From Clostridia bacterium (GTDB lineage: Bacteria; Bacillota; Clostridia; Oscillospirales; Acutalibacteraceae), in NCBI GenBank assembly GCA_017439205.1, contig JAFRSZ010000272.1:1-19215 (forward strand): a stretch of DNA of 19,215 nucleotides, read 5' to 3'. Positions within the stretch are counted from its first letter, which is position 1; each line of letters opens with the position of its first letter. The position numbers and the translations under genes were made by a program. Positions 1 through 14,069 of the stretch are shown piece by piece. Under the pieces are notes generated by a model. That model was not told the DNA's origin. It ran no database searches and was given only the letters and a program-made list of their open reading frames with translations.

Positions 1-4
1 AAGC

Positions 5-98
5 GAAGTCGCCCCTCAGGTAATCAGCTCCGAAGGAGCGTCTTCATTTCTTCATTAGCGAAACGTCTTCATTAGCCCCGCAAGGGGCGACTTCATTA
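5..98. repeat. Repeat-rich non-coding segment with four copies of CTTCATT (two as CTTCATTAGC), enclosed by a 12-bp perfect inverted repeat (5-16 vs 83-94) and a GCCCC-GCAA-GGGGC hairpin
   Basis: CTTCATT occurs at 42-48, 50-56, 67-73 and 91-97. GAAGTCGCCCCT (5-16) is the exact reverse complement of AGGGGCGACTTC (83-94). A GNRA-looped hairpin spans 75-88. There is no ORF, and the segment abuts the bidirectional terminator. Confidence 0.5.
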
Positions 99-125
99 AA
101 AAAGCACGCCTGAGCGTGCTTTTTT
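98..125. terminator. Bidirectional intrinsic terminator: GCACGC-CTGA-GCGTGC hairpin with A6 on the 5' side and T6 on the 3' side
   Basis: Perfect 6-bp GC-rich stem 104-109/114-119 with a 4-nt loop. A T-run 120-125 serves the plus strand and an A-run 98-103 serves the minus strand. It lies immediately 3' of tRNA-Trp on the minus strand. Confidence 0.7.
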
Positions 126-126
126 C

Positions 127-202
127 TGGCAGGGGCAGAAGGACTTGAACCCTCGGCACGCGGTTTTGGAGACCGCTGCTCTACCAACTGAGCTATACCC
201 CT
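127..202 (-). tRNA. trnW: tRNA-Trp (anticodon CCA), 76 nt with encoded CCA
   Basis: The reverse complement folds as a cloverleaf: acceptor AGGGGTA/TGCCCCT, D-stem GCTC/GAGC, anticodon stem GCGGT/ACCGC with loop CTCCAAA (anticodon CCA), and T-arm GAGGG-TTCAAGT-CCTTC. Discriminator is G followed by CCA. Confidence 0.9.
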
Positions 203-216
203 ATATTCAAATGATG

Positions 217-293
217 TGGTGGACCATCAGGGACTCGAACCCCGGACCGACCGGTTATGAGCCGGTTGCTCTAACCAACTGAGCTAATGGTCC
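217..293 (-). tRNA. trnM: tRNA-Met (anticodon CAT), elongator-type; could alternatively be tRNA-Ile2 (lysidine-modified CAU). 77 nt with encoded CCA
   Basis: The reverse complement is GGACCATTAGCTCAGTTGGTTAGAGCAACCGGCTCATAACCGGTCGGTCCGGGGTTCGAGTCCCTGATGGTCCACCA. The anticodon loop is CTCATAA and the T-loop is TTCGAGT. Position 1-72 is fully paired and the anticodon stem has no 3xG-C run, so it is not an initiator. Confidence 0.88.
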
Positions 294-310
294 TTGCCGA
301 CTGCCCCATT

Positions 311-339
311 ATTATATATGGACGGTAATAAAAAGTCAA
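311..339 (-). promoter_or_regulatory. Sigma-A type promoter for the tRNA-Met/tRNA-Trp unit: TTGACT-17-TATAAT
   Basis: On the minus strand the -35 TTGACT lies at 334-339 and the -10 TATAAT at 311-316, with an exact 17-nt spacer. The tRNA 5' end (293) is 17 nt downstream of the -10. The element sits 9 nt after the RT stop codon. Confidence 0.65.
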
Positions 340-348
340 GCATTATTT

Positions 349-1566
349 TTATTTATTTTTACCGGTCCTGTCTTCGCGGAAAACGTAGTATTCATGCACA
401 AGGCTCCGGTAGCCGAGCGCCTTCAGATCTTCGTACCTCGCGTTATACCGCGCTTTCGTGCGCGTATCTGTCAGCAGATACCGGATGCAGTCCTGCGCGT
501 AGCGGTCGATCTCGCCGAGCCGCTGCGCGGTTGTGATTACGGGGAAATACCAGAGCGACCACGTAAGCTCGTTATCGCCCGCGCTCTCAAACAGTTTTCG
601 GTTGAAAACGCGAATAAAAGCCTTCGCCGCTTTTTCATTCGGCAGGTCGCTGCGTTTCCGCCAGCGGGCAAGGGCTCTGGTTTTCCTGCGCATTTTCGCT
701 TTGAGTTTCTGCATCGACGCGGGGGCGACGTCCACTTCCCCGTTTTTGTACTCAAACCCAAGATAGATCCACCCTGTTTCGGGGGTGAACCGATCTTCTT
801 TTTTTTCATTCACCGAAAGGCCGTGCGTCAAAAGCTGCGCGCGGATCTCAGATGCATACGCTTCTGCCTTCTCCGCCGAATCCGCAAAAACAATGATATC
901 GTCCGAGTATCTGGCGTACAGAACGCCGCGTTCGGCAAAGACTGCGTCAAGATCGCCGAGATACAGATTCGCAAAAAACGCGGACAACGGCGTTCCCGCC
1001 ATGATGCCCTTTTGTTCCGTTACCGGTTTCCCGTTATCCATAACGTAAGGCTCGCAAAGCAGGCTTTCAAGAAAACGGCAGAGCGCGGCGTCATCACGAA
1101 GGATTCCGCGCAGTTTTACGAGCAGGGGTTCTATGGGGATGGAATTGAAATAATCGCTCACGTCCGCTTTATACACGTACATCCCGCGCATACCGGGCGC
1201 GTATTTCAGGCGCAGAACGGCGTCTTTTGCGGTTCGCCCGGGACGGAACGAATACAGATTGACTGAAAACACAGCGTCGTATTCGCGCAGCATCAGCCAG
1301 GTAAGCAGCTTCAGAACGGTGTTCTCCGCAAACGGATAGGTATATACCGTGCGCTTCTTCTGCGAGCTCATTTTGCATACGACGCTCTTTTTCGGAAGCG
1401 GGAACCGCCCGCCCGCAGCGATCTTTTCACATACGGGCAGGTAGGCCGCTGTGTCGATAAACGACCGCAGATCCCGCAGAAAGCTTTTCGGGCAGGACAG
1501 ATTGCTTTTATATTCGTAAAATGCCTCCCACATTTCGGGGCGGGACAAAAGATCAAGAAGACTCAT
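349..1566 (-). CDS. Stand-alone group II intron-like reverse transcriptase (RT fingers/palm plus maturase-like thumb/X domain; no endonuclease domain). The ORF track extends to a TTG at 1572; the first ATG is at 1564-1566
   Basis: The translation carries RT motifs. Motif 1-like is KRTVYTYPF..VLKLLTWL. Motif 2 is NLYSFRPGRTAKDAV, matching the group-II SYGFRPGRS. Motif 3 is YVYKADVSDYFNSI. Motif 4 is GTPLSAFFANLYLGDLD. Motif 5 is the catalytic YARYSDDIIVF (YxDD). Motif 6/7 is LSVNEKK...GWIYLGFEY. The C-terminal ~110 aa resemble a group II maturase (GIIM) domain (LTWSLWYF...IDRYAQDCIRYLL). The retron NAxxH and VTG motifs are absent, and so is the DGR SQ motif. Confidence 0.85.
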   Translation of the reverse strand: MSLLDLLSRPEMWEAFYEYKSNLSCPKSFLRDLRSFIDTAAYLPVCEKIAAGGRFPLPKKSVVCKMSSQKKRTVYTYPFAENTVLKLLTWLMLREYDAVFSVNLYSFRPGRTAKDAVLRLKYAPGMRGMYVYKADVSDYFNSIPIEPLLVKLRGILRDDAALCRFLESLLCEPYVMDNGKPVTEQKGIMAGTPLSAFFANLYLGDLDAVFAERGVLYARYSDDIIVFADSAEKAEAYASEIRAQLLTHGLSVNEKKEDRFTPETGWIYLGFEYKNGEVDVAPASMQKLKAKMRRKTRALARWRKRSDLPNEKAAKAFIRVFNRKLFESAGDNELTWSLWYFPVITTAQRLGEIDRYAQDCIRYLLTDTRTKARYNARYEDLKALGYRSLVHEYYVFREDRTGKNK

Positions 1567-1572
1567 AATCAA

Positions 1573-1757
1573 TAAAAAACAGCGCCCCGCAGACAGTAAA
1601 GCCCGCGGAGGCGCAAACCAAAACGAAAACAGAAAGGATTAAATCCCGGTAATTCCGGGATATACCGGGCCGTACATACGCGAACTGCCTGCGAAGTTTT
1701 ATAAGGCGTATGCCGGGTCCGCCGCAGGCGCAAAGCGTTCTGTTTTCGGTTTTGCCG
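1573..1757 (-). ncRNA. Candidate structured non-coding RNA element between the nuclease-fold gene and the RT gene. It may be an RT-associated ncRNA or a regulatory leader
   Basis: This 185-nt intergenic region has no ORF. An 11-bp perfect inverted repeat CGAAAACAGAA/TTCTGTTTTCG (1738-1748 vs 1624-1634) brackets the region. Inside it are nested stems GCCTGCG...CGCAGGC and GGCG...CGCC. There is a cluster of three CCGG-containing arms: GCCCGG tatat CCCGG, and TCCCGG-AATTA-CCGGGA as a perfect 6-bp hairpin. A GC hairpin plus T7 (minus-strand terminator-like, 1575-1612) ends 6 nt before the RT start. Confidence 0.3.
1624..1748 (-). repeat. 11-bp perfect inverted repeat pair (1624-1634 and 1738-1748) flanking the intergenic structured region
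   Basis: Plus strand 1624-1634 is cgaaaacagaa and plus strand 1738-1748 is ttctgttttcg. They are exact reverse complements spaced 103 nt apart, and 3-4 further pairs are possible beyond a 1-nt bulge. Confidence 0.6.
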
Positions 1758-2285
1758 TTATCTGAGAACCTTGCCGATGCGTTCCGTCACATATTTGCGG
1801 GTGTTCCACCAGCCGCTGTGGTCATAATAGAACCGCAGATACGGCACGCCTTCGGCTTCGGCGGCACGGCGGAAGCGCTGCGCTTCGCTGGATTCGCTTT
1901 TGAGCTCAACGATCAGCACCTTTGCGCCGTCACGGAAGAAGGTGTATATCGGGCTGAAGCTGTTTGATCCGGGCGCGGAAGTAAACGTATACGCGCCGAA
2001 ATCCTCACGGAAGATCTTTTCAAAATACTGGATATACGTACCGTTAAAATTATACTGATTTTCCTCTGCGGGAATATTGTCGTAAAAAGAATCGCCGTCT
2101 GGATATACGGATGCGGGAGTGGGCGCGGATTGCTGCGCTGCGGGCCTCGGCTGCGCCGTATGCTGCGAGGGTTTTTCAAACTGCAGCTTATCGGCTGCGT
2201 CCTTTAATTCCTGCGCCGCTTCCTTCATTTTATTGAGCGCGGATTCAACGTTTTTATCTGCGAACAGCTTATCGAACAAACCCAT
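1758..2285 (-). CDS. Small PD-(D/E)xK nuclease-fold protein (DUF559/Vsr-like C-terminal domain) with an N-terminal helical segment and a P/Q/A-rich linker. The true start is the ATG at 2283-2285, not the track's 2315
   Basis: The start has the RBS AGGAGG 7 nt upstream of ATG GGT TTG (MGLFDKLF...). The C-terminal domain carries a PD-(D/E)xK-like signature, FFRDGAKVLIVELKS, with the spacing D..(7)..E-L-K. It also has a DUF559-like tail, RFRRAAEAEGVPYLRFYYD, matching R..R..LE..GW.VLRF. Confidence 0.6.
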   Translation of the reverse strand: MGLFDKLFADKNVESALNKMKEAAQELKDAADKLQFEKPSQHTAQPRPAAQQSAPTPASVYPDGDSFYDNIPAEENQYNFNGTYIQYFEKIFREDFGAYTFTSAPGSNSFSPIYTFFRDGAKVLIVELKSESSEAQRFRRAAEAEGVPYLRFYYDHSGWWNTRKYVTERIGKVLR

Positions 2286-2385
2286 AATGATCCTCCTGCA
2301 AAAATAGTGTTTCAAATAAAACTGGCCGATAAACGCATAGGGATACCGGCCGGATTTTGTCTGTTAAGATGAATCGTCACATTGA

Positions 2386-2538
2386 TCAGTCTAAGGACGT
2401 AATGCCGGTCGCAAAGGAAAACAGGCCGCCTATTCTCTGAAAAATGTCCGTAAGATAAGAGAGGACAACTGCAAGCACCTGCAGCGCGGGAACAGCTCTT
2501 GAAACAGCGCCGTCCAGATTAACGCCTTCTTTATTCAT
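2386..2538 (-). CDS. Possible small ORF (50 aa, hydrophobic; MNKEGVNLDGAVSRAVPALQVLAVVLSYLTDIFQRIGGLFSFATGITSLD) within the long leader
   Basis: The RBS GAGGT sits 7 nt upstream of the ATG at 2536-2538. The frame is open to TGA at 2386-2388. The ORF starts ~45 nt downstream of the predicted promoter. It falls below the 60-aa cutoff of the supplied ORF track, and it contains one predicted hydrophobic helix. Confidence 0.25.
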   Translation of the reverse strand: MNKEGVNLDGAVSRAVPALQVLAVVLSYLTDIFQRIGGLFSFATGITSLD

Positions 2539-2592
2539 TGCAAATACCTCAACGGAATAAATCCGTCCCTTTCTTTATATTTTTTCATAATG

Positions 2593-2621
2593 ATTATACA
2601 ATACTTTCGGCAAAAAAGCAA
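2593..2621 (-). promoter_or_regulatory. Sigma-A type promoter TTGCTT-17-TATAAT (TG adjacent to the -10) driving the leader, nuclease-fold gene and RT
   Basis: On the minus strand the -35 lies at 2616-2621 and the -10 at 2593-2598, with an exact 17-nt spacer. It is located just after the stop of the PP2C-like gene. The predicted transcription start is ~300 nt upstream of the nuclease-fold gene start. Confidence 0.5.
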
Positions 2622-2640
2622 GCAGTTTTTTTATATGCGG

Positions 2641-3987
2641 TCAATCCTCATCGCCGCCTTCTTCGCTGCCTTCTTCACCGCCCTGATTTTCAGTGGAAAC
2701 ATCGCCGGTCTCGGGCTCCTGCGAAGAGGTGGGTTCTGTGGATTCTTCTGCATCGGTTGAGCCTTCGGTAGGTTCCTCTTCCCGTTCGGTGGTGGGGACC
2801 GTTGCGGGCTCTTCTTCGGTTTCATCCTCTTCCGGATAATTGGCTCTTGTTGGGGCGGACGTCGCTTTTTCTGTTGTCGGGGCTTCGGTGGTGGACTCCG
2901 CCGTTGTGGATACTTCAGTGGTTGAAGTTTCACTGGGTTTCTGCGTCGTGGACGTCTGCGCGGCGGCATTCTGCGATTCGCTTACCGAAACAGAAGCTGA
3001 AACGGAGCTGGGATCGACCGTGGAATCGCCGGGGTCTCCGTGGGATTCGGACCAGTATTTGATACCGAACAGAACACCAGCGATCACCGCGCACGCAAGA
3101 AGCAGAATCAGGAACAAACGTCCTGCCTTTTTGCCCTTGCTCACCGGAGCGGTTTCTTCTTCGCCGCCTTCTTCCTCAGGCTGCTCTTCGGCATGCTGTT
3201 CGGTTTTATCCGCGTCTTCTTCGGTAATCTCTTCAGCAGCGGCATGGGCAGCTGCAGCGGCGGCAGGAACCTCGGCAGGCGCTTTTGCGGCAGAAGGCTC
3301 GGCTTCGGTAATCTTAATTACGATGGCGCTGACGGCTTCTTTGCAGCCGTATTTTGCCGCCTGCGACGCGATCAGAGAAACGATCTTTTTCACATCACCC
3401 GCAGCGTTTTTGCAAACGGCTTCCAGCAGACCTGCGGGAAGGGACGACACCGTTTTACCGGAAAGCAGAATAAAGATATCTCCCGCCTTAACGTTGCTGC
3501 ACTGGGCAACGCCGAACGAGGATTTATTATCCGAAAAACCAATCTGCTGAGGAACGATCTCGATAAAAGTATCGTCATAAAAAGTATATGCTTTGTTGCC
3601 GCCTGCGGTGGCAATATAAACCGTATCGTCCACACCGGTAAGGATCGAGAAATCGCAGTCGGATGAAGAGAAACCGGTTTCGTTCAGCACTTTTGCAAAG
3701 GCTTTCAGATAATCCGCGATCAGCACCGCATCATTGGAACCGTCCTCGCTGAATTTTTCAACGCAGGACCGGAACAGGCTCGCCGCACTCTCCGCAGTCC
3801 CCTTCTTATCCGAACTCGCAAGCACATAGTAAGGGCGGTCGGAACCCGTACCGGCGGCACGGACCCCCTTTTCGCCGTTGACGACGTCTTTCGGCCACAG
3901 CTTACCGGAAACGTTTACGTAATCCGTATTAAAATCTCTTGCGGCGCCTTTTCTGGAAACGACCGCGGTTTCAACTGAAATGGACAT
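2641..3987 (-). CDS. PP2C-like (apparently catalytically degenerate) phosphatase-fold domain, followed by one transmembrane helix and a long acidic Ser/Thr/Glu-rich low-complexity tail
   Basis: The RBS GGAGG lies 8 nt upstream of ATG TCC ATT (MSISVETAVV). The N-terminus matches the PP2C pattern SR.GAAR.FNTDY. The canonical DGMGG metal motif is replaced by SSDKKGT and the CSDGL motif by LSGKT. The TM segment is LFLILLLACAVIAGVLFGIKYW. The tail has STTE/EEE repeats. The gene overlaps the folC end by 17 nt. Confidence 0.6.
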   Translation of the reverse strand: MSISVETAVVSRKGAARDFNTDYVNVSGKLWPKDVVNGEKGVRAAGTGSDRPYYVLASSDKKGTAESAASLFRSCVEKFSEDGSNDAVLIADYLKAFAKVLNETGFSSSDCDFSILTGVDDTVYIATAGGNKAYTFYDDTFIEIVPQQIGFSDNKSSFGVAQCSNVKAGDIFILLSGKTVSSLPAGLLEAVCKNAAGDVKKIVSLIASQAAKYGCKEAVSAIVIKITEAEPSAAKAPAEVPAAAAAAHAAAEEITEEDADKTEQHAEEQPEEEGGEEETAPVSKGKKAGRLFLILLLACAVIAGVLFGIKYWSESHGDPGDSTVDPSSVSASVSVSESQNAAAQTSTTQKPSETSTTEVSTTAESTTEAPTTEKATSAPTRANYPEEDETEEEPATVPTTEREEEPTEGSTDAEESTEPTSSQEPETGDVSTENQGGEEGSEEGGDED

Positions 3988-5302
3988 GCGAATTTCCTCC
4001 AATATATTTATAATCTTTCACTGTTTTCAATAAATGCGCTCTCACGTCGGACGCAAGATAAAGCGAACCGCAAACAACGAGCATATCGTAATCTTTCAGC
4101 TGAATGAAAGCCTCGTCGATCGCGCGTATGGGATCTTCCAGCGCCTGCGCCTCGGTTCCGCCGCGCCGCACAATACCGGCAAATTCCTCCGCAGGCATCG
4201 CGCGCGGGTTGGACGGCGTAACAGCGATCACCTTTGCGAAATACGGGCAGAGATGCTCCGTTGCCTTTTCACAGTCTTTATCTCGCATCATGCCCATCAC
4301 GGCGAGGATGCGTTTATTTGAAGCGAACCGCTCCAACAGCGCAGCCAGCGCAGCGGTGGAGCCGTCGTTATGGGAGCCGTCGAGAAGGATCAGCGGATCT
4401 CTGCAAACGATCTCCGTGCGGGCGGGGATAAACGACGCTTCAATACCTTCCTTGATCTGCTTTCTTGTGATATCGAGGCCGTTCACGCCGATCACTTCAC
4501 ACGCTTTCACGGACAGAGCTGCGTTCTGCAGCTGATGCTCCCCGGCAAACGGAATATGGATAGGCGTATCTCTGTATGTAACGTCGGCGCCGTCAAGCGA
4601 AGTCTCCCCTACCTGAAACAGGTCTTCCGAAGCCGCTTCAAACAGGAACGAGCCTTTTTCTGCGGCGACGGCGCGGATCACCCGGGCAGCCTCGGGCGCC
4701 TGCGATGCGGTTGTAACTGAGTGGCAGCGCGGTTTGATAATACCGCATTTTTCGTACGCGATCTCACCGAGCGTATTGCCCAGAACATTCATATGATCCA
4801 TCGAAACGGAAGTGATCACGCTGACGATCGGATCTTCAATGATGTTCGTTGCGTCGTACCTGCCGCCGAGCCCGGTTTCCAGCACAGCCACCCTGCAGCC
4901 CGCCTGCGCGAAATACAGGAAGGCCGCGGCGGTGATCGCCTCGAATTCGGTGGGCGAAACGCCCTGCGCGTTCAGAGCAAGAACGGCCTCTTTGACCTTT
5001 TCGGTGACCGAAACGAGCGCATCGGGCGGGATCATCCGGTTATCCACCTGTATGCGCTCTCTGAAATCGAGCACGTACGGCGAGGTATACAAGCCGGTTT
5101 TGAACCCCGCGACGCGAAGGATATTTGAAATCTCGGTGCACACCGTGCCCTTGCCGTTGGTTCCCGCAACGTGCACATAACGCATCTGTTTCTCGGGATG
5201 CCCCAGATATTCGCACAGAGCGCCGATCCGCTCAAGCCCGGGCCGGATGCCGAAGCGTTCCAGCGAATGGTAGAACGCGACTGCGCTGTTATAATCCATC
5301 AT
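3971..5302 (-). CDS. folC: Folylpolyglutamate synthase / dihydrofolate synthase (FolC, Mur ligase family)
   Basis: The P-loop VHVAGTNGKGTV is typical of Mur ligases. The ORF has the full-length FolC architecture (443 aa). Its ATG sits 1 nt after the valS TGA, so the two are translationally coupled. This matches the valS-folC synteny known from Bacillus. Confidence 0.85.
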   Translation of the reverse strand: MMDYNSAVAFYHSLERFGIRPGLERIGALCEYLGHPEKQMRYVHVAGTNGKGTVCTEISNILRVAGFKTGLYTSPYVLDFRERIQVDNRMIPPDALVSVTEKVKEAVLALNAQGVSPTEFEAITAAAFLYFAQAGCRVAVLETGLGGRYDATNIIEDPIVSVITSVSMDHMNVLGNTLGEIAYEKCGIIKPRCHSVTTASQAPEAARVIRAVAAEKGSFLFEAASEDLFQVGETSLDGADVTYRDTPIHIPFAGEHQLQNAALSVKACEVIGVNGLDITRKQIKEGIEASFIPARTEIVCRDPLILLDGSHNDGSTAALAALLERFASNKRILAVMGMMRDKDCEKATEHLCPYFAKVIAVTPSNPRAMPAEEFAGIVRRGGTEAQALEDPIRAIDEAFIQLKDYDMLVVCGSLYLASDVRAHLLKTVKDYKYIGGNSHVHFS

Positions 5303-8089: not shown

Positions 8090-10294
8090 TTATTCTGTCA
8101 AAAATGATTTTAATGCGGAATATCTTCGTTTGGTCTTGTTATTTTCCGTCATTCTGCGTACGCGCTGCTCATCGCCCACGATGATCAGCATCTTTTTTGC
8201 CCTTGTAACGGCGGTGTACAGCAGGTTCCGATACATCATGACCGGAGGGCAGTCGATCAGCGGCAGGATCACCACCGGGTATTCGCTGCCCTGGCTCTTA
8301 TGTACGGTAACGGCATAGGCAAGCTCGAGATCGGAGAGCATGTCGGACGGATATTCCGCCACGCGGTCGTCAAACAGGATATACATAACGTCCGTTACGA
8401 AATTGATTTTCTGTATGATGCCGATGTCGCCGTTAAAGATGCCGTCGCCCTCTTCGAGGTCCTTCTTCCAGTGGATATTGTAATTATTGCGCAGCTGCAT
8501 CACCCGGTCGCCCTCGCGGAAAACTCTGCCGGACGGCGTTTTCAGTTCGCTTTTGGAACGGTCCGGCGGGTTGAGCACCTGCTGCAGACGTTTATTGGTG
8601 TTCCCTGTGCCGCACTCCCCTCTTTTCGCAGGGCAAAGCACCTGGATATCGGCGATCGGATCGAACCCGTACGCTTCGGGGAGCCTTTGTGAGATCAGTT
8701 CGGTCACCGTTTTGCCGGTCAGAAACTGATTCGCCCGTTTCATAAAGAAGAAATCGTTATCGGTCCTGCCGAGCTCCGGCATCTCGCCGTGGATGATCTT
8801 ATGCGCGTTTGATACGATCAGGCTCTTCTGCGCCTGACGGAAGATCTCGTTCAGGCATACCACCGGCAGAACGCCGGAGCCGATCACGTCGCTGAGTACG
8901 TTGCCCGGGCCCACGCTCGGCAGCTGATCCGCATCTCCCACCAGAATGATGCGGCAACCGATGGGTACGGCGTCAAGCAGGCTCGCCATCAGCTCCACGT
9001 CCACCATGGAAACTTCGTCGATGATGATCGCGCCGGCCTGCAGCGGATTCTGCGCGTCGCGCCGGAACACAGGCTTGTCTTCATCGGTCCATTCCACCTC
9101 AAGCAGGCGGTGGATCGTTTTTGCCTCGCGCCCGGTCACTTCCGCCATGCGTTTGGCTGCCATGCCCGTGGGAGCGCACAGAAGGATATCGATATGCCTG
9201 CGTTCAAGGATTTCAATGATGCCGCGCACCGTGGTCGTTTTGCCGGTGCCCGGCCCGCCGGTAAGGATCAGAAGCCCCTTCTGCGAAGCGATGCGTATGG
9301 CCTCTTTCTGCTTCTCGGCATATTGTATGCCGTTTTGCTCTTCCAGCTCACAGACGTCCTTTTTGATATCCTTGTTCGAGGAGGGGGTGAACTTCACGGC
9401 GCGTTTCAGCCGCTCGGCGATCCGGCGCTCCGCCTCATAGATATCGGGAAGAAACAGATATTCTTCATCCTGCAGCGTTACCCGGTACAGACGTTTCAGC
9501 TCCGCAAGAAGCGCTACGGCGTCAAGCGCTTCCTCTTCGCCGATCTCCAGATAATCGCACGCAAGCGGGATGATCTTATTGGAAGGGATGCAGGTATGGC
9601 CGTTCTGATAGAGATTGTACGTTACGATATATAAGATCCCCGCCGTGTTGCGGAAGGTGCTGTCCGGCGTAAGATCCATATCCGTTCTCAGTTTTTCAAC
9701 ACGCTCAAAATTGAACCCGCGCACCGTACCGCACAGAACATACGGATTCTTGCGGATCACCTCAAGCGCGGTCACGCCGAAATATTTATAGATATTGGTC
9801 GATTCCGTTGGGGTGATGCCGTAGGATTCCAGCTCCAGCATGATCTTGCGCATGGCGTACTGGCGGTTGAATTCATTTGAGATATCCACGGCCTTCTTTT
9901 TGGAAATGCCGTTGATCACAGCAAGGCGGTCCGGCTCGTTTTCAAGCACCTCGAAAGCGCGGTCGCCGAATTCCCGGATGATCTTCGCTGCCAGCTTCGG
10001 CCCGACGCCTTTGATCGCGCCTGACGCAAGATAACGGAACAGCTTCGCCGCGGTATCCGGCAGCGTGCGGGAACAGGACGAAAAACGAAACTGCCGTCCG
10101 AAGGTTGCATGCGAATCCCATTTACCGTGCAGTTCCACCTCTTCGCCGGCGGCGACTTCGGAGATCATCCCCACCGCGGTGAGAATGTTTCCCTCGCTGT
10201 TGATCTCAATCACCGTAAAGCCGTTGGTCTGGTTCTGAAAGACCACCGATTCCACGACGCCTCTTACGGTCTCTTCATATTCGGGCGTACTCAA
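8090..10294 (-). CDS. recD2: ATP-dependent RecD-like DNA helicase (RecD2/YrrC family, SF1B)
   Basis: The N-terminal OB/HhH region is VVESVVFQNQTNGFTVIEI..GKWDSHATFGRQFRF..RYLASGAIKGVGPKLAAKI. The Walker A is LTGGPGTGKTT. It has the full SF1B motif set and is 734 aa. It starts at a TTG with GGAGG 11 nt upstream. That start overlaps the stop of the upstream gene as TTGA. Confidence 0.85.
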   Translation of the reverse strand: MSTPEYEETVRGVVESVVFQNQTNGFTVIEINSEGNILTAVGMISEVAAGEEVELHGKWDSHATFGRQFRFSSCSRTLPDTAAKLFRYLASGAIKGVGPKLAAKIIREFGDRAFEVLENEPDRLAVINGISKKKAVDISNEFNRQYAMRKIMLELESYGITPTESTNIYKYFGVTALEVIRKNPYVLCGTVRGFNFERVEKLRTDMDLTPDSTFRNTAGILYIVTYNLYQNGHTCIPSNKIIPLACDYLEIGEEEALDAVALLAELKRLYRVTLQDEEYLFLPDIYEAERRIAERLKRAVKFTPSSNKDIKKDVCELEEQNGIQYAEKQKEAIRIASQKGLLILTGGPGTGKTTTVRGIIEILERRHIDILLCAPTGMAAKRMAEVTGREAKTIHRLLEVEWTDEDKPVFRRDAQNPLQAGAIIIDEVSMVDVELMASLLDAVPIGCRIILVGDADQLPSVGPGNVLSDVIGSGVLPVVCLNEIFRQAQKSLIVSNAHKIIHGEMPELGRTDNDFFFMKRANQFLTGKTVTELISQRLPEAYGFDPIADIQVLCPAKRGECGTGNTNKRLQQVLNPPDRSKSELKTPSGRVFREGDRVMQLRNNYNIHWKKDLEEGDGIFNGDIGIIQKINFVTDVMYILFDDRVAEYPSDMLSDLELAYAVTVHKSQGSEYPVVILPLIDCPPVMMYRNLLYTAVTRAKKMLIIVGDEQRVRRMTENNKTKRRYSALKSFLTE

Positions 10295-13457: not shown

Positions 13458-14069
13458 TTATAATACGCAGGTATATTCCACAGCGATGCCGATGATATCG
13501 ATATCGGCTTCGTTGGCGTCAACATAAACGGGGGCGGTTTGCGGGAATGCGCCGTAAAACACCATACCGCCGTCACAGAAAGAAATCTTGCGCAGAAGCA
13601 CCTGCCCGCGGTAACGGAACAGCACGTACTGCCCTTCAAGGCAGGAATCCTGCAGACGGATCAGGAACAGCGCCCCCTGCGGCGCGGCAGGCGAAAGAGA
13701 GCCGTTATCGTCCTGCAGCATGATATACGCAAAGCCGGTTTCAAGATACTCAGGCAATATGCTTTTATAAAACAGCGGCTCATTCTCACCGTCGCCGTAC
13801 TGTGAAAGCCTGAACACCGGGATATTGGTACGCACCGCTCCTTCTTTGCCGAGTATAGCGTCTCTGCACATCAGGTAATCAAGGCTGCAGTCAAAAATCG
13901 AACTGAGTTCAACAAGCGTGTTGATATCCGGCTCGTTGGACCCGAGCTCCCACATCCTGACGGCGCTGCCGCTTTTTGCGAGCCTGTCCGCCAGTTCGTT
14001 TTGCGTCATGCCGGCATTCTTTCGCAGATTCTTTAAGCGAAAGCCGAAGCCGTTTTTTTCTTTTTTCAT
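13458..14069 (-). CDS. XRE-family HTH transcriptional regulator with a C-terminal S24 (LexA/CI-like) peptidase domain
   Basis: The HTH is LRKNAGMTQNELADRLAKSGSAVRMWELGSNEPDINTLVELSSIF. The S24-like domain has a Ser in NGSLSP and a Lys in VLLRKI, spaced as in the LexA/CI autocleavage dyad. Confidence 0.75.
   Translation of the reverse strand: MKKEKNGFGFRLKNLRKNAGMTQNELADRLAKSGSAVRMWELGSNEPDINTLVELSSIFDCSLDYLMCRDAILGKEGAVRTNIPVFRLSQYGDGENEPLFYKSILPEYLETGFAYIMLQDDNGSLSPAAPQGALFLIRLQDSCLEGQYVLFRYRGQVLLRKISFCDGGMVFYGAFPQTAPVYVDANEADIDIIGIAVEYTCVL

Follow-up and report, generated by a model that had tools for sequence, protein, structure and literature searches.

A UG26 reverse transcriptase encoded with the orphan RNA motif RT-5 and a small RTasCOG2852 protein in a Clostridia bacterium

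What is a group-II-like reverse transcriptase (RT) doing in a bacterial chromosome when no intron surrounds it, and does it act alone? The question is raised by a gene at positions 349..1566, on the minus strand, of contig JAFRSZ010000272.1 (assembly GCA_017439205.1) from a Clostridia bacterium of the family Acutalibacteraceae; the whole stretch of 19,215 nucleotides (nt) that was analysed is called the window below. An earlier note, made from the letters of the DNA, had described the gene as a free-standing group-II-like RT, of the G2L (group-II-like) or maturase type. We find, with very little room for doubt, that the locus is a cassette of three parts: an RT of the UG26 group, the Rfam RNA motif RT-5 directly upstream of it, and a small protein of the RTasCOG2852 family. 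These parts form an operon in the order small-protein gene, structured RNA of about 140 nt, attenuator and RT gene, and every feature of the cassette described here lies on the minus strand.

The RT open reading frame (ORF) is intact, starts at an ATG and encodes 405 amino acids (aa); an in-frame TTG at 1572 would give an alternative product of 407 aa. The protein matches both RT_UG26 and the Pfam domain RVT_1. Against the PADLOC profile RT_UG26 (PDLC03764) it scores 559 bits (E-value 1.2e-168) and covers positions 1-397 of 398, and the next PADLOC profiles are a generic RT (113 bits) and then UG17 (103.5 bits, a partial match), which is the profile of DRT10 and the closest among the characterised UG groups. 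The Drt2 profile reaches 77 bits over part of the protein only. The NCBIfam model TIGR04416 (group_II_RT_mat) gives 109.6 bits against a cut-off of 300, with a match that stops at residue 305, and the retron profile NF038233 (retron_St85) gives 43.7 bits against a cut-off of 235. The window RT is an ordinary, intact member of the catalogued, uncharacterised UG26 family, which Mestre et al. 2022 assigned to Class 2 of the UG/Abi lineage (PMC9226505). The G2L or maturase-type assignment of the earlier note therefore gives way: by its UG26 profile and the published Class 2 placement, the protein falls inside an Abi clade, an outcome that the note itself had named as a refutation. The name that NCBI gives to UG26 homologues, ‘group II intron reverse transcriptase domain-containing’, is misleading for the same proteins.

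The group-II-like character that the note had seen does hold for the core of the enzyme, whose sequence and fold are nearest to GsI-IIC, and does not hold for the protein as a whole, which is UG26 from end to end. The motifs FRPGR (residue 107), GTP (191) and ANLYL (199) are present in the translation as the note had read them, along with the catalytic YSDD at 220 and YLGF/LGF at 269. Motif 7 is thus the group-II-like YLGF, and a VTG motif is not present in the translation. RVT_1 is the only Pfam domain of the protein: the scan found no GIIM, no endonuclease domain and no additional fused domain, in agreement with the description of Class 2 RTs as lacking any domain beyond the RT (PMC9226505). 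The note was accordingly right that there is no En domain, and its GIIM-like C-terminal domain finds no counterpart in Pfam, the TIGR04416 match having ended at residue 305. An AlphaFold2 model, for which database homologues served as sequence input, shows a single compact RT (pLDDT 91), and the whole predicted structure superposes on group II RTs despite the absence of a GIIM detectable by sequence.

When a profile of UG26 homologues was compared with solved structures, GsI-IIC came first (3e-30), followed by CRISPR-associated RTs (3e-26 and 7.5e-24); below other group II RTs came DRT9 (8e-17), G2L4 (7e-13) and DRT2 (1e-11), and lowest were the RT of a diversity-generating retroelement (DGR; 2e-10) and the retron RTs (about 1e-7). 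Foldseek with the predicted model gave template modelling (TM) scores of 0.75 for GsI-IIC, 0.72 for G2L4, 0.64 for DRT9 and 0.59 for DRT2. Group II intron RTs resemble the RT core more closely than retron RTs do, and the note's preference against a retron or a DGR is borne out. Judged by profile scores, the UG26 RT is about equally distant from group II RTs and from its nearest UG neighbours; its deep placement relative to group II and G2L would follow from these scores together with the published classification, with G2L compared through G2L4 alone.

These comparisons bear on the possibility that the protein is, after all, a free-standing G2L-type RT that acts on cellular DNA or RNA ends, for example in double-strand-break repair as G2L4 does, with no dedicated RNA. 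The closest solved folds are those of group II RTs and G2L4, and group II is best by sequence; the neighbours of the gene are housekeeping genes, with a RecD2 in the window, and the fold of the partner protein is common to the repair endonuclease Vsr. Set against this, a UG26-specific profile covers the whole protein, by sequence G2L4 is surpassed by group II intron RTs, by CRISPR-associated RTs and by DRT9, and the RT almost never occurs without RT-5 and the small protein. A dedicated structured RNA with a partner protein is typical of Class 2 DRTs and foreign to G2L. We therefore regard this explanation as improbable.

The RT is flanked by spacers of 185 nt upstream (1573-1757) and 55 nt downstream (294-348, reaching a tRNA-Met gene), the lengths given in the earlier note. 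The note saw no GUGYG 5' end and no domain V there; the upstream spacer does hold a full-length RT-5 RNA inside a larger conserved structure. The Rfam model RT-5 (RF03026) matches 1631..1733 on the RT strand, directly upstream of the RT, with 89.5 bits against a gathering threshold of 45.7 and over model positions 1-104 of 104, and the match comprises the P1/P2 hairpin, the P3 hairpin and conserved tails. The note's expectation that no group II ribozyme flanks the gene was upheld when the covariance models were run: the Rfam group II families (Intron_gpII and group-II-D1D4) gave no match at the gathering threshold in the whole window and none at E<=1 in positions 1-4000. A group II intron was rejected on these scans.

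The Rfam match is the inner part of an extended RNA at 1618..1754, which our covariance model R1 detects in the window with 142.7 bits. Its outer helix was recognised from complementarity between the flanks of the Rfam match, and the window differs in sequence there while keeping the pairing. This closing stem, P0, joins a 5' strand at 1738-1754 to a 3' strand at 1618-1634 and has compensatory changes in 12 of 13 pairs; RNAalifold predicts it de novo. A near-invariant GC follows the 5' strand of P0. P0 is separated from the pseudoknot by the unpaired junction J0 (CGCUUUGC, 1730..1737), which has the general form CGC-N2..9-YGC and measures 8 to 15 nt depending on the locus. Next, 5' of P1, comes the first strand of the pseudoknot, GCCUGCG (1723..1729), which pairs with CGCAGGC (1687..1693) in the apical loop of P2. 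The long P1/P2 hairpin (1666..1722; compensatory changes in 10 of 16 pairs) is interrupted by a variable, asymmetric internal loop, which reads CUUAUAA at 1699-1705 in the window. The P3 hairpin, CCCGG-AAUUA-CCGGG (1645..1659), has compensatory changes in all 5 of its 5 pairs, with 99.5% of alignment cells paired. Finally, the junction J3/0 (AUUUAAUCCU, 1635..1644) places 10 unpaired nt between P3 and P0. Its length is 10 nt in nearly all of 77 loci, and it has an invariant UUUAA and then four variable nt, after which comes the invariant UU of P0.

Across the alignment of 77 sequences, 97% of cells are paired, compared with about 45% in slid controls. The covariation score of the RNA is 0.40, compared with 0.18 in shuffled alignments, and none of 500 shuffles reached 0.40. 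The top 13 column pairs by mutual information are all annotated base pairs, and the window RNA folded as a single sequence has z = -4.1. The alignment model already includes the nested helices and so favours their pairing counts; that these helices are real is argued from the de novo RNAalifold prediction and the slid controls. The pseudoknot counts are not fitted in this way, because the pseudoknot pairs are absent from the search model. It is paired in 99.6% of cases over 75 distinct sequences and shows compensatory changes in 3 of 7 pairs (U-A to C-G, in six sequences). A nested CGC:GCG helix that would compete with the pseudoknot fits more poorly and was rejected.

Several further features of the RNA were observed. 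The self-complementary tetranucleotide GUAC occurs in two near-invariant copies, with a spacing of 10 nt, around the P1 3' strand (about 1662-1675 in the window; consensus GUACGgucnGGUAc in alignment A6), and they could form an alternative hairpin of 4 bp or an RNA-RNA dimer contact. The fourth base of J0 (A6 column 32, about 1734) co-varies with the first variable base of J3/0 (column 343, about 1638), purine with purine and pyrimidine with pyrimidine, a pattern that is neither Watson-Crick pairing nor identity; no other pair of unpaired, non-adjacent positions in the RNA core has a stronger mutual-information signal. The internal loop of P2 carries insertions of about 75 nt in locus L001 (2799-2977 there; apparently an extra hairpin) and of 10-15 nt in L027 and L009, and outside this loop the RNA keeps its length in all three.

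Beyond the upstream spacer lies the third part of the cassette, a gene at 1758..2285 that encodes a protein of 175 aa, with an ATG at 2285 and a GGAGG Shine-Dalgarno (SD) sequence 8 nt upstream of it. The protein matches the PADLOC profile RTasCOG2852 (PDLC03793) end to end (E-value 9e-49), and against Pfam it has no match, with no nuclease family appearing even at E<=10. A disordered linker joins its N-terminal helix, conserved as MGLF.KL, to a C-terminal domain of about 110 aa; this domain has a Vsr/DUF559-like fold, in which the alpha-beta-beta-beta-alpha-beta core is present. Among its catalytic positions, E127 on beta-3 is alone invariant: the K of the ExK motif is often M, and beta-2 has no invariant Asp, with D155, H156 and GWWN conserved nearby. 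By analogy with other systems, the small protein would be a candidate partner or effector of the RT. With this gene as its conserved companion, the RT is not the free-standing enzyme that the earlier note had proposed.

The association of the three parts extends well beyond the window. A database search returned more than 3000 UG26 homologues, the top 120 of which have 60-98% identity and about 400 aa and belong, with few exceptions, to uncultured Clostridia. When one genome per species was scanned, at least 575 UG26 loci appeared; the results on loci given here refer to the 80 that were kept, almost all from ruminant-gut metagenome-assembled genomes and mostly from Clostridia. RT-5 was found upstream of the RT in all 20 loci tested with Rfam, and the extended model R1 found the RNA in 77 loci (77/79 evaluable). 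Four sources were missed by R1, two of which (L033 and L066) are contigs that end at the RT. The 175-aa protein is encoded directly upstream in 76 of the 79 evaluable loci. In one locus, L064, the RNA is present and an alpha/beta hydrolase stands upstream in the place of the small protein.

All-vs-all clustering of the flanking ORFs of 81 loci revealed no other recurrent gene family. A third cluster of flanking ORFs, a long antisense ORF over the small gene in 28 loci (e.g. L002 2252-2842, minus strand), is a shadow ORF rather than a gene, since it clusters because the sense gene for the small protein is conserved.

Our results agree with the description of UG26 by Mestre et al. in that the RT and COG2852 profiles are matched end to end and no extra domain is present. 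They differ in scale and content: that study listed 35 members, found a COG2852/YcjD-like protein beside 9 of them, described no RNA and rated the prediction of a defence role as inconclusive (PMC9226505), whereas we find more than 3000 homologues, the partner in 76/79 loci and the RNA in 77/79. The RNA itself has been known since Weinberg et al. 2017 described RT-1 to RT-19 as motifs near RT genes, collectively possible retron or DGR RNAs (PMC5737381). The Rfam RT-5 model covers the inner 104 nt only, and the main text of that paper has neither P0 and the pseudoknot nor a link to UG26 or to the small protein. In the searchable literature, we found no experimental study of UG26 and nothing that ties UG26 to RT-5 or RF03026. 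To RT-5 we add the P0 closing stem, the pseudoknot and the link to UG26 and the small protein; to UG26, the tie to an orphan Rfam motif, a partner that is near-obligate rather than occasional and a large family size.

The signals for expression are similar in many loci, with a sigma-70-like TTGACA-17-TATAAT promoter and a GGAGG SD upstream of the small gene. In 56 of the 77 loci a U-run comes after P0, so the RNA probably ends at this U-run, and the RT would be made by read-through. P0 and its U-run are an attenuator, and the window has a second terminator besides: an extra intrinsic terminator at 1571..1614 (hairpin 1582-1614, U-run 1571-1581; found by terminator scan and folding), which sits between the RT-5 RNA and the start codon of the RT. 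Most related loci have an SD before the RT, directly after the U-run of P0, and inspection of the sequence shows none before the start codon of the window RT. The weak initiation signals reported in the earlier note, an ATG or TTG without an SD, are thus confirmed. With the second terminator and no SD, expression of the RT in this organism may be very weak.

The same signals speak for another reading, in which RT-5 would be only a cis-regulatory leader, an attenuator or operator for the RT or the small protein, with the RT acting on other substrates or without a template, as in Class 1 UG/Abi. Beyond the attenuator between the small gene and the RT in 56/77 loci, the second terminator and missing SD of the window would limit RT expression further, and two orphan UG26 RTs occur without the RNA. 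A terminator, however, needs no invariant pseudoknot, GUAC or UUUAA, and no three-helix core conserved in sequence across families of Clostridia; every characterised Class 2 system templates on its cis-encoded RNA; and the roles of attenuator and template are compatible with each other. We give a purely regulatory RNA only a small chance.

The layout of the cassette also recalls a retron. In such a scheme, P0 would correspond to a1/a2, the conserved G 3' of the P0 5' strand (CGC) would prime through its 2'-OH, and the 3' part of the RNA (J3/0 and P3) would be copied once into an msDNA-like hybrid that controls the small protein. The arrangement is that of msr-msd-RT, with the RNA directly upstream on the RT strand and its ends paired by a covarying stem; the near-invariant GC after P0 fits, and Weinberg et al. 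proposed that many RT-n motifs are retron RNAs (PMC5737381). The enzyme argues otherwise. It scores 43.7 bits where retron_St85 requires 235, solved retron RTs match at about 1e-7 where group II RTs match at 3e-30, there is no VTG motif and motif 7 is YLGF. In the RNA, a pseudoknot is present and a long hairpin of the msd type is missing, and the characterised Class 2 UG enzymes prime on protein or copy a template iteratively. On balance, we think a retron-like mechanism quite unlikely.

From the identity of the three parts, their near-obligate co-occurrence and the structure of the RNA, we infer a mechanism by analogy with the characterised Class 2 systems. In these, a cis-encoded non-coding RNA serves as scaffold and template, the template is a short segment between two stem-loops anchored by the RT, and synthesis is iterative (10.64898/2026.06.29.735271; 10.1101/2025.10.16.682844). 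We estimate at roughly 60% the probability that the UG26 cassette likewise encodes a DRT-like ribonucleoprotein of Class 2, in which a short template inside the RNA is copied again and again, and put RNA-templated DNA synthesis from RT-5 at the same level. In this mechanism, the RT would bind the RT-5 RNA as a scaffold, as in DRT2, DRT3, DRT9 and DRT10, and iteratively copy a short single-stranded segment framed by two helices. Priming would perhaps occur from a tyrosine in the C-terminal HEYY motif, and the small protein may bind, cut or be controlled by the product DNA.

The likeliest template would be J3/0 (AUUUAAUCCU), giving a complementary DNA (cDNA) of the form (GGATTAAA)n, with P3 as a candidate 5' template-boundary element; J0 (CGCUUUGC) is the alternative. 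P3 lies immediately 5' of J3/0 and P0 immediately 3', an arrangement that mirrors the requirement in DRT10 for a template 3' of a stable stem-loop, and yet the choice of J3/0 is tentative and, taken by itself, doubtful. The proposed priming draws on DRT9 and DRT10, where a Tyr or Ser at the C-terminus, beyond a conserved helix, primes synthesis (10.64898/2026.06.29.735271; 10.1101/2025.10.16.682844). Common to the UG26 RTs is a C-terminal helix (...SLVHEYY), beyond which comes a variable tail, 3-40 residues long, and in the window RT this helix ends in HEYY at residues 391-394. A HEYY helix with a variable tail is compatible with C-terminal protein priming.

The closest parallel is DRT10 (UG17), for which telomerase-like tandem-repeat synthesis has been described (10.1101/2025.10.16.682844; 10.64898/2026.06.29.735271). 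The two are alike in having three parts (a non-coding RNA, a SLATT protein and an RT in DRT10), in the size of the RNA, about 140 nt, and in a short unpaired stretch that lies immediately 3' of a stable stem-loop and is bounded by a second helix. At the C-terminus of either RT, a conserved helix leads to a hydroxyl residue and then to a tail that varies. However, the UG26 RT scores 104 bits on the UG17 profile compared with 559 on its own, its partner is soluble and nuclease-like whereas that of DRT10 is a SLATT membrane protein, and the order is protein-RNA-RT instead of RNA-SLATT-RT. The UG26 RNA also has a pseudoknot and a closing stem, an A-B-A' arrangement is without statistical support in it, and the cassette lies outside defence islands.

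DRT9 (UG28) and DRT2 (UG2) resemble the UG26 system in combining a stand-alone RT with an upstream, cis-encoded structured RNA as scaffold and template, and their solved RT folds are related to that of the UG26 RT (TM 0.64 and 0.59). They differ in that RT-5 has no conserved internal poly-U template, its U-run being a terminator tail, that a stop-free repeat ORF is not possible in RT-5, and that DRT9 and DRT2 need no partner protein. DRT8, in which a UG7 RT is joined by a PD-(D/E)xK nuclease effector (PMC9226505), shares the pairing of an RT with a protein of restriction-endonuclease-like fold, although its RT belongs to another group, the UG26 partner is small and Vsr/DUF559-like without a conserved canonical catalytic triad, and UG26 has a dedicated RNA. 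GsI-IIC and G2L4, the best solved matches in fold and sequence, have FRPGR, GTP...ANLYL and YLGF in common with the UG26 RT, which for its part lacks a ribozyme, a detectable GIIM and an endonuclease, falls below the TIGR04416 cut-off and has a small RNA and a partner.

A more distant likeness is to the core of telomerase RNA, in which a closing helix also encloses a ring with a pseudoknot and short single-stranded junctions beside boundary helices. This likeness is architectural only and implies no relationship in sequence or family, and if J3/0 were the template, the order of template and pseudoknot would be permuted. Class 2 UG RTs have been linked to TERT.

Several observations weigh against the mechanism that we favour. 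The A-A' homology at either candidate template amounts to 2-3 invariant nt with no support from covariation, and part of the putative A' at J3/0 falls inside the invariant GAA:UUC end of P0. Homology of at least 3 nt at J3/0 is seen in about 78% of cases compared with about 71% expected from base composition, and what remains is only the invariant UUU..UU. An association between positions 1 and 9 of J3/0, seen by eye and suggestive of A-B-A' identity covariation, is not among the strong mutual-information signals and is not supported. The RT core scores about equally on the group II profile (110 bits) and on UG17 (104 bits), so the transfer of Class 2 behaviour to UG26 rests on the published classification. 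Two UG26 RTs, in L046 (2695-3948) and L067 (2905-4206), have neither RT-5 nor the small protein. All six neighbourhoods that were examined (the window and five long contigs) are metabolic or housekeeping in character, and no close relatives turned up in IMG/VR, among GenBank phages or in PLSDB plasmids. Finally, a search of the literature turned up no cDNA, RNA-binding or phenotype data for any UG26 system. The two orphan RTs both come directly after unrelated genes: LigB-AMMECR1 and GGDEF genes in L046 (PADLOC UG26 match 1e-165) and ABC-2 transporter genes in L067.

Metagenome contigs were also scanned for the pattern (TTTAANGN)x3+TTTAA. The scan found at least 120 arrays in many environments, often at contig ends and none near RT-5, and is uninformative on the product DNA; the best-looking array (L084), with 22 units of TTTAACGC/TTTAACAC, lies among unrelated tandem repeats. 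The 8-nt TTTAANGN arrays (L084-L163) come from soil, freshwater, marine and gut samples and have up to 32 units, most commonly TTTAAGGG, TTTAAAGA and TTTAACGA. Telomere-like ends, ordinary microsatellites and assembly break points are candidate explanations for them.

A different kind of product would result from DRT2-like rolling-circle copying of the whole RNA core, in which P0 would juxtapose the ends to give a concatemeric cDNA with a stop-free ‘neo’ ORF, and cDNA junctions of the form ...UUUAANNNN joined directly to YUGCGCC... would be predicted. P0 does join both ends of the core, and AAYGCY occurs just inside both P0 strands in about one-third of the loci. The length of the core is nevertheless unconstrained modulo 3 (30/23/23), and the invariant UUUAA rules out a stop-free frame, on whichever strand, for 53 of 76 cores; a neo-like ORF from the concatenated core was rejected on these two grounds. 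The core is, in addition, the conserved scaffold itself, pseudoknot included, and the match to the Drt2 profile is partial at 77 bits. We consider such copying very improbable.

None of the six genomic neighbourhoods of the cassette has an integrase, transposase or known defence gene nearby, and comparison of the cassette edges across loci showed no conserved termini and no flanking repeats. Together with the absence of recurrent neighbours and of close relatives in phage, plasmid and viral collections, this led us to reject a mobile element. A decayed or unusual mobile retroelement, either a group II intron remnant or a retrotransposon composed of a nuclease and an RT, would account for a nuclease-like protein, a structured RNA and a group-II-like RT occurring together in a different neighbourhood in each genome examined. 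It is hardly credible in view of the missing ribozyme domains, termini and flanking repeats, the fact that each of the 80 kept loci comes from a genome record of its own, the two intact and conserved proteins with their own promoter, and the absence from plasmid, phage and viral collections.

Just downstream of the RT are genes for tRNA-Met (217-293) and tRNA-Trp (127-202), both on the minus strand, with a near-consensus promoter TTGACT-17-TATAAT (339..311, minus strand) in the 55-nt spacer and a terminator-like hairpin at about 99-125; the pair looks like an independent tRNA operon. Linkage to tRNA genes was rejected as a feature of the system: of 52 loci, only about 8 have a tRNA at a distance of 3 kb or less. 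Upstream of the cassette, a 453-aa ORF at 2641-4002 (minus strand) has no Pfam domain, and its C-terminal half gives weak matches of low-complexity type to PADLOC PD-T4-6 (E-value 2e-7), GltJ and RodZ. Its product is probably associated with the envelope or the cytoskeleton and has nothing to do with the cassette; the ORF is not conserved beside other UG26 loci. Further away are genes for a RecD2-type helicase (8090-10294) and a LexA-like repressor (HTH_3 + Peptidase_S24; 13458-14069), both on the minus strand, and no link of either to the cassette was found in other loci.

Class 2 UG RTs have recently yielded unexpected forms of DNA synthesis, namely de novo genes, homopolymers and telomerase-like repeats. 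For UG26, the present analysis offers predictions at the level of nucleotides and residues, in the form of candidate templates, a product sequence and candidate priming tyrosines. Because the cassette lies among housekeeping genes and not in defence islands, phages or plasmids, its output may serve either phage defence or a housekeeping DNA transaction. Given that it is missing from defence islands and mobile elements, one may ask if UG26 is an immune system at all. A further reading, which we hold to be unlikely, is a telomerase-like ribonucleoprotein of gut Clostridia, chromosomally fixed outside defence islands and with a Vsr-like DNA-binding or nuclease partner, that would make protein-primed tandem repeats, such as (GGATTAAA)n in this organism. 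Its RNA would combine three hallmarks of the telomerase-RNA core, namely the enclosing helix, the pseudoknot and a short template beside a boundary helix. If true, it could mean that UG26, unlike DRT2, DRT9 and DRT10, serves a housekeeping DNA transaction instead of immunity.

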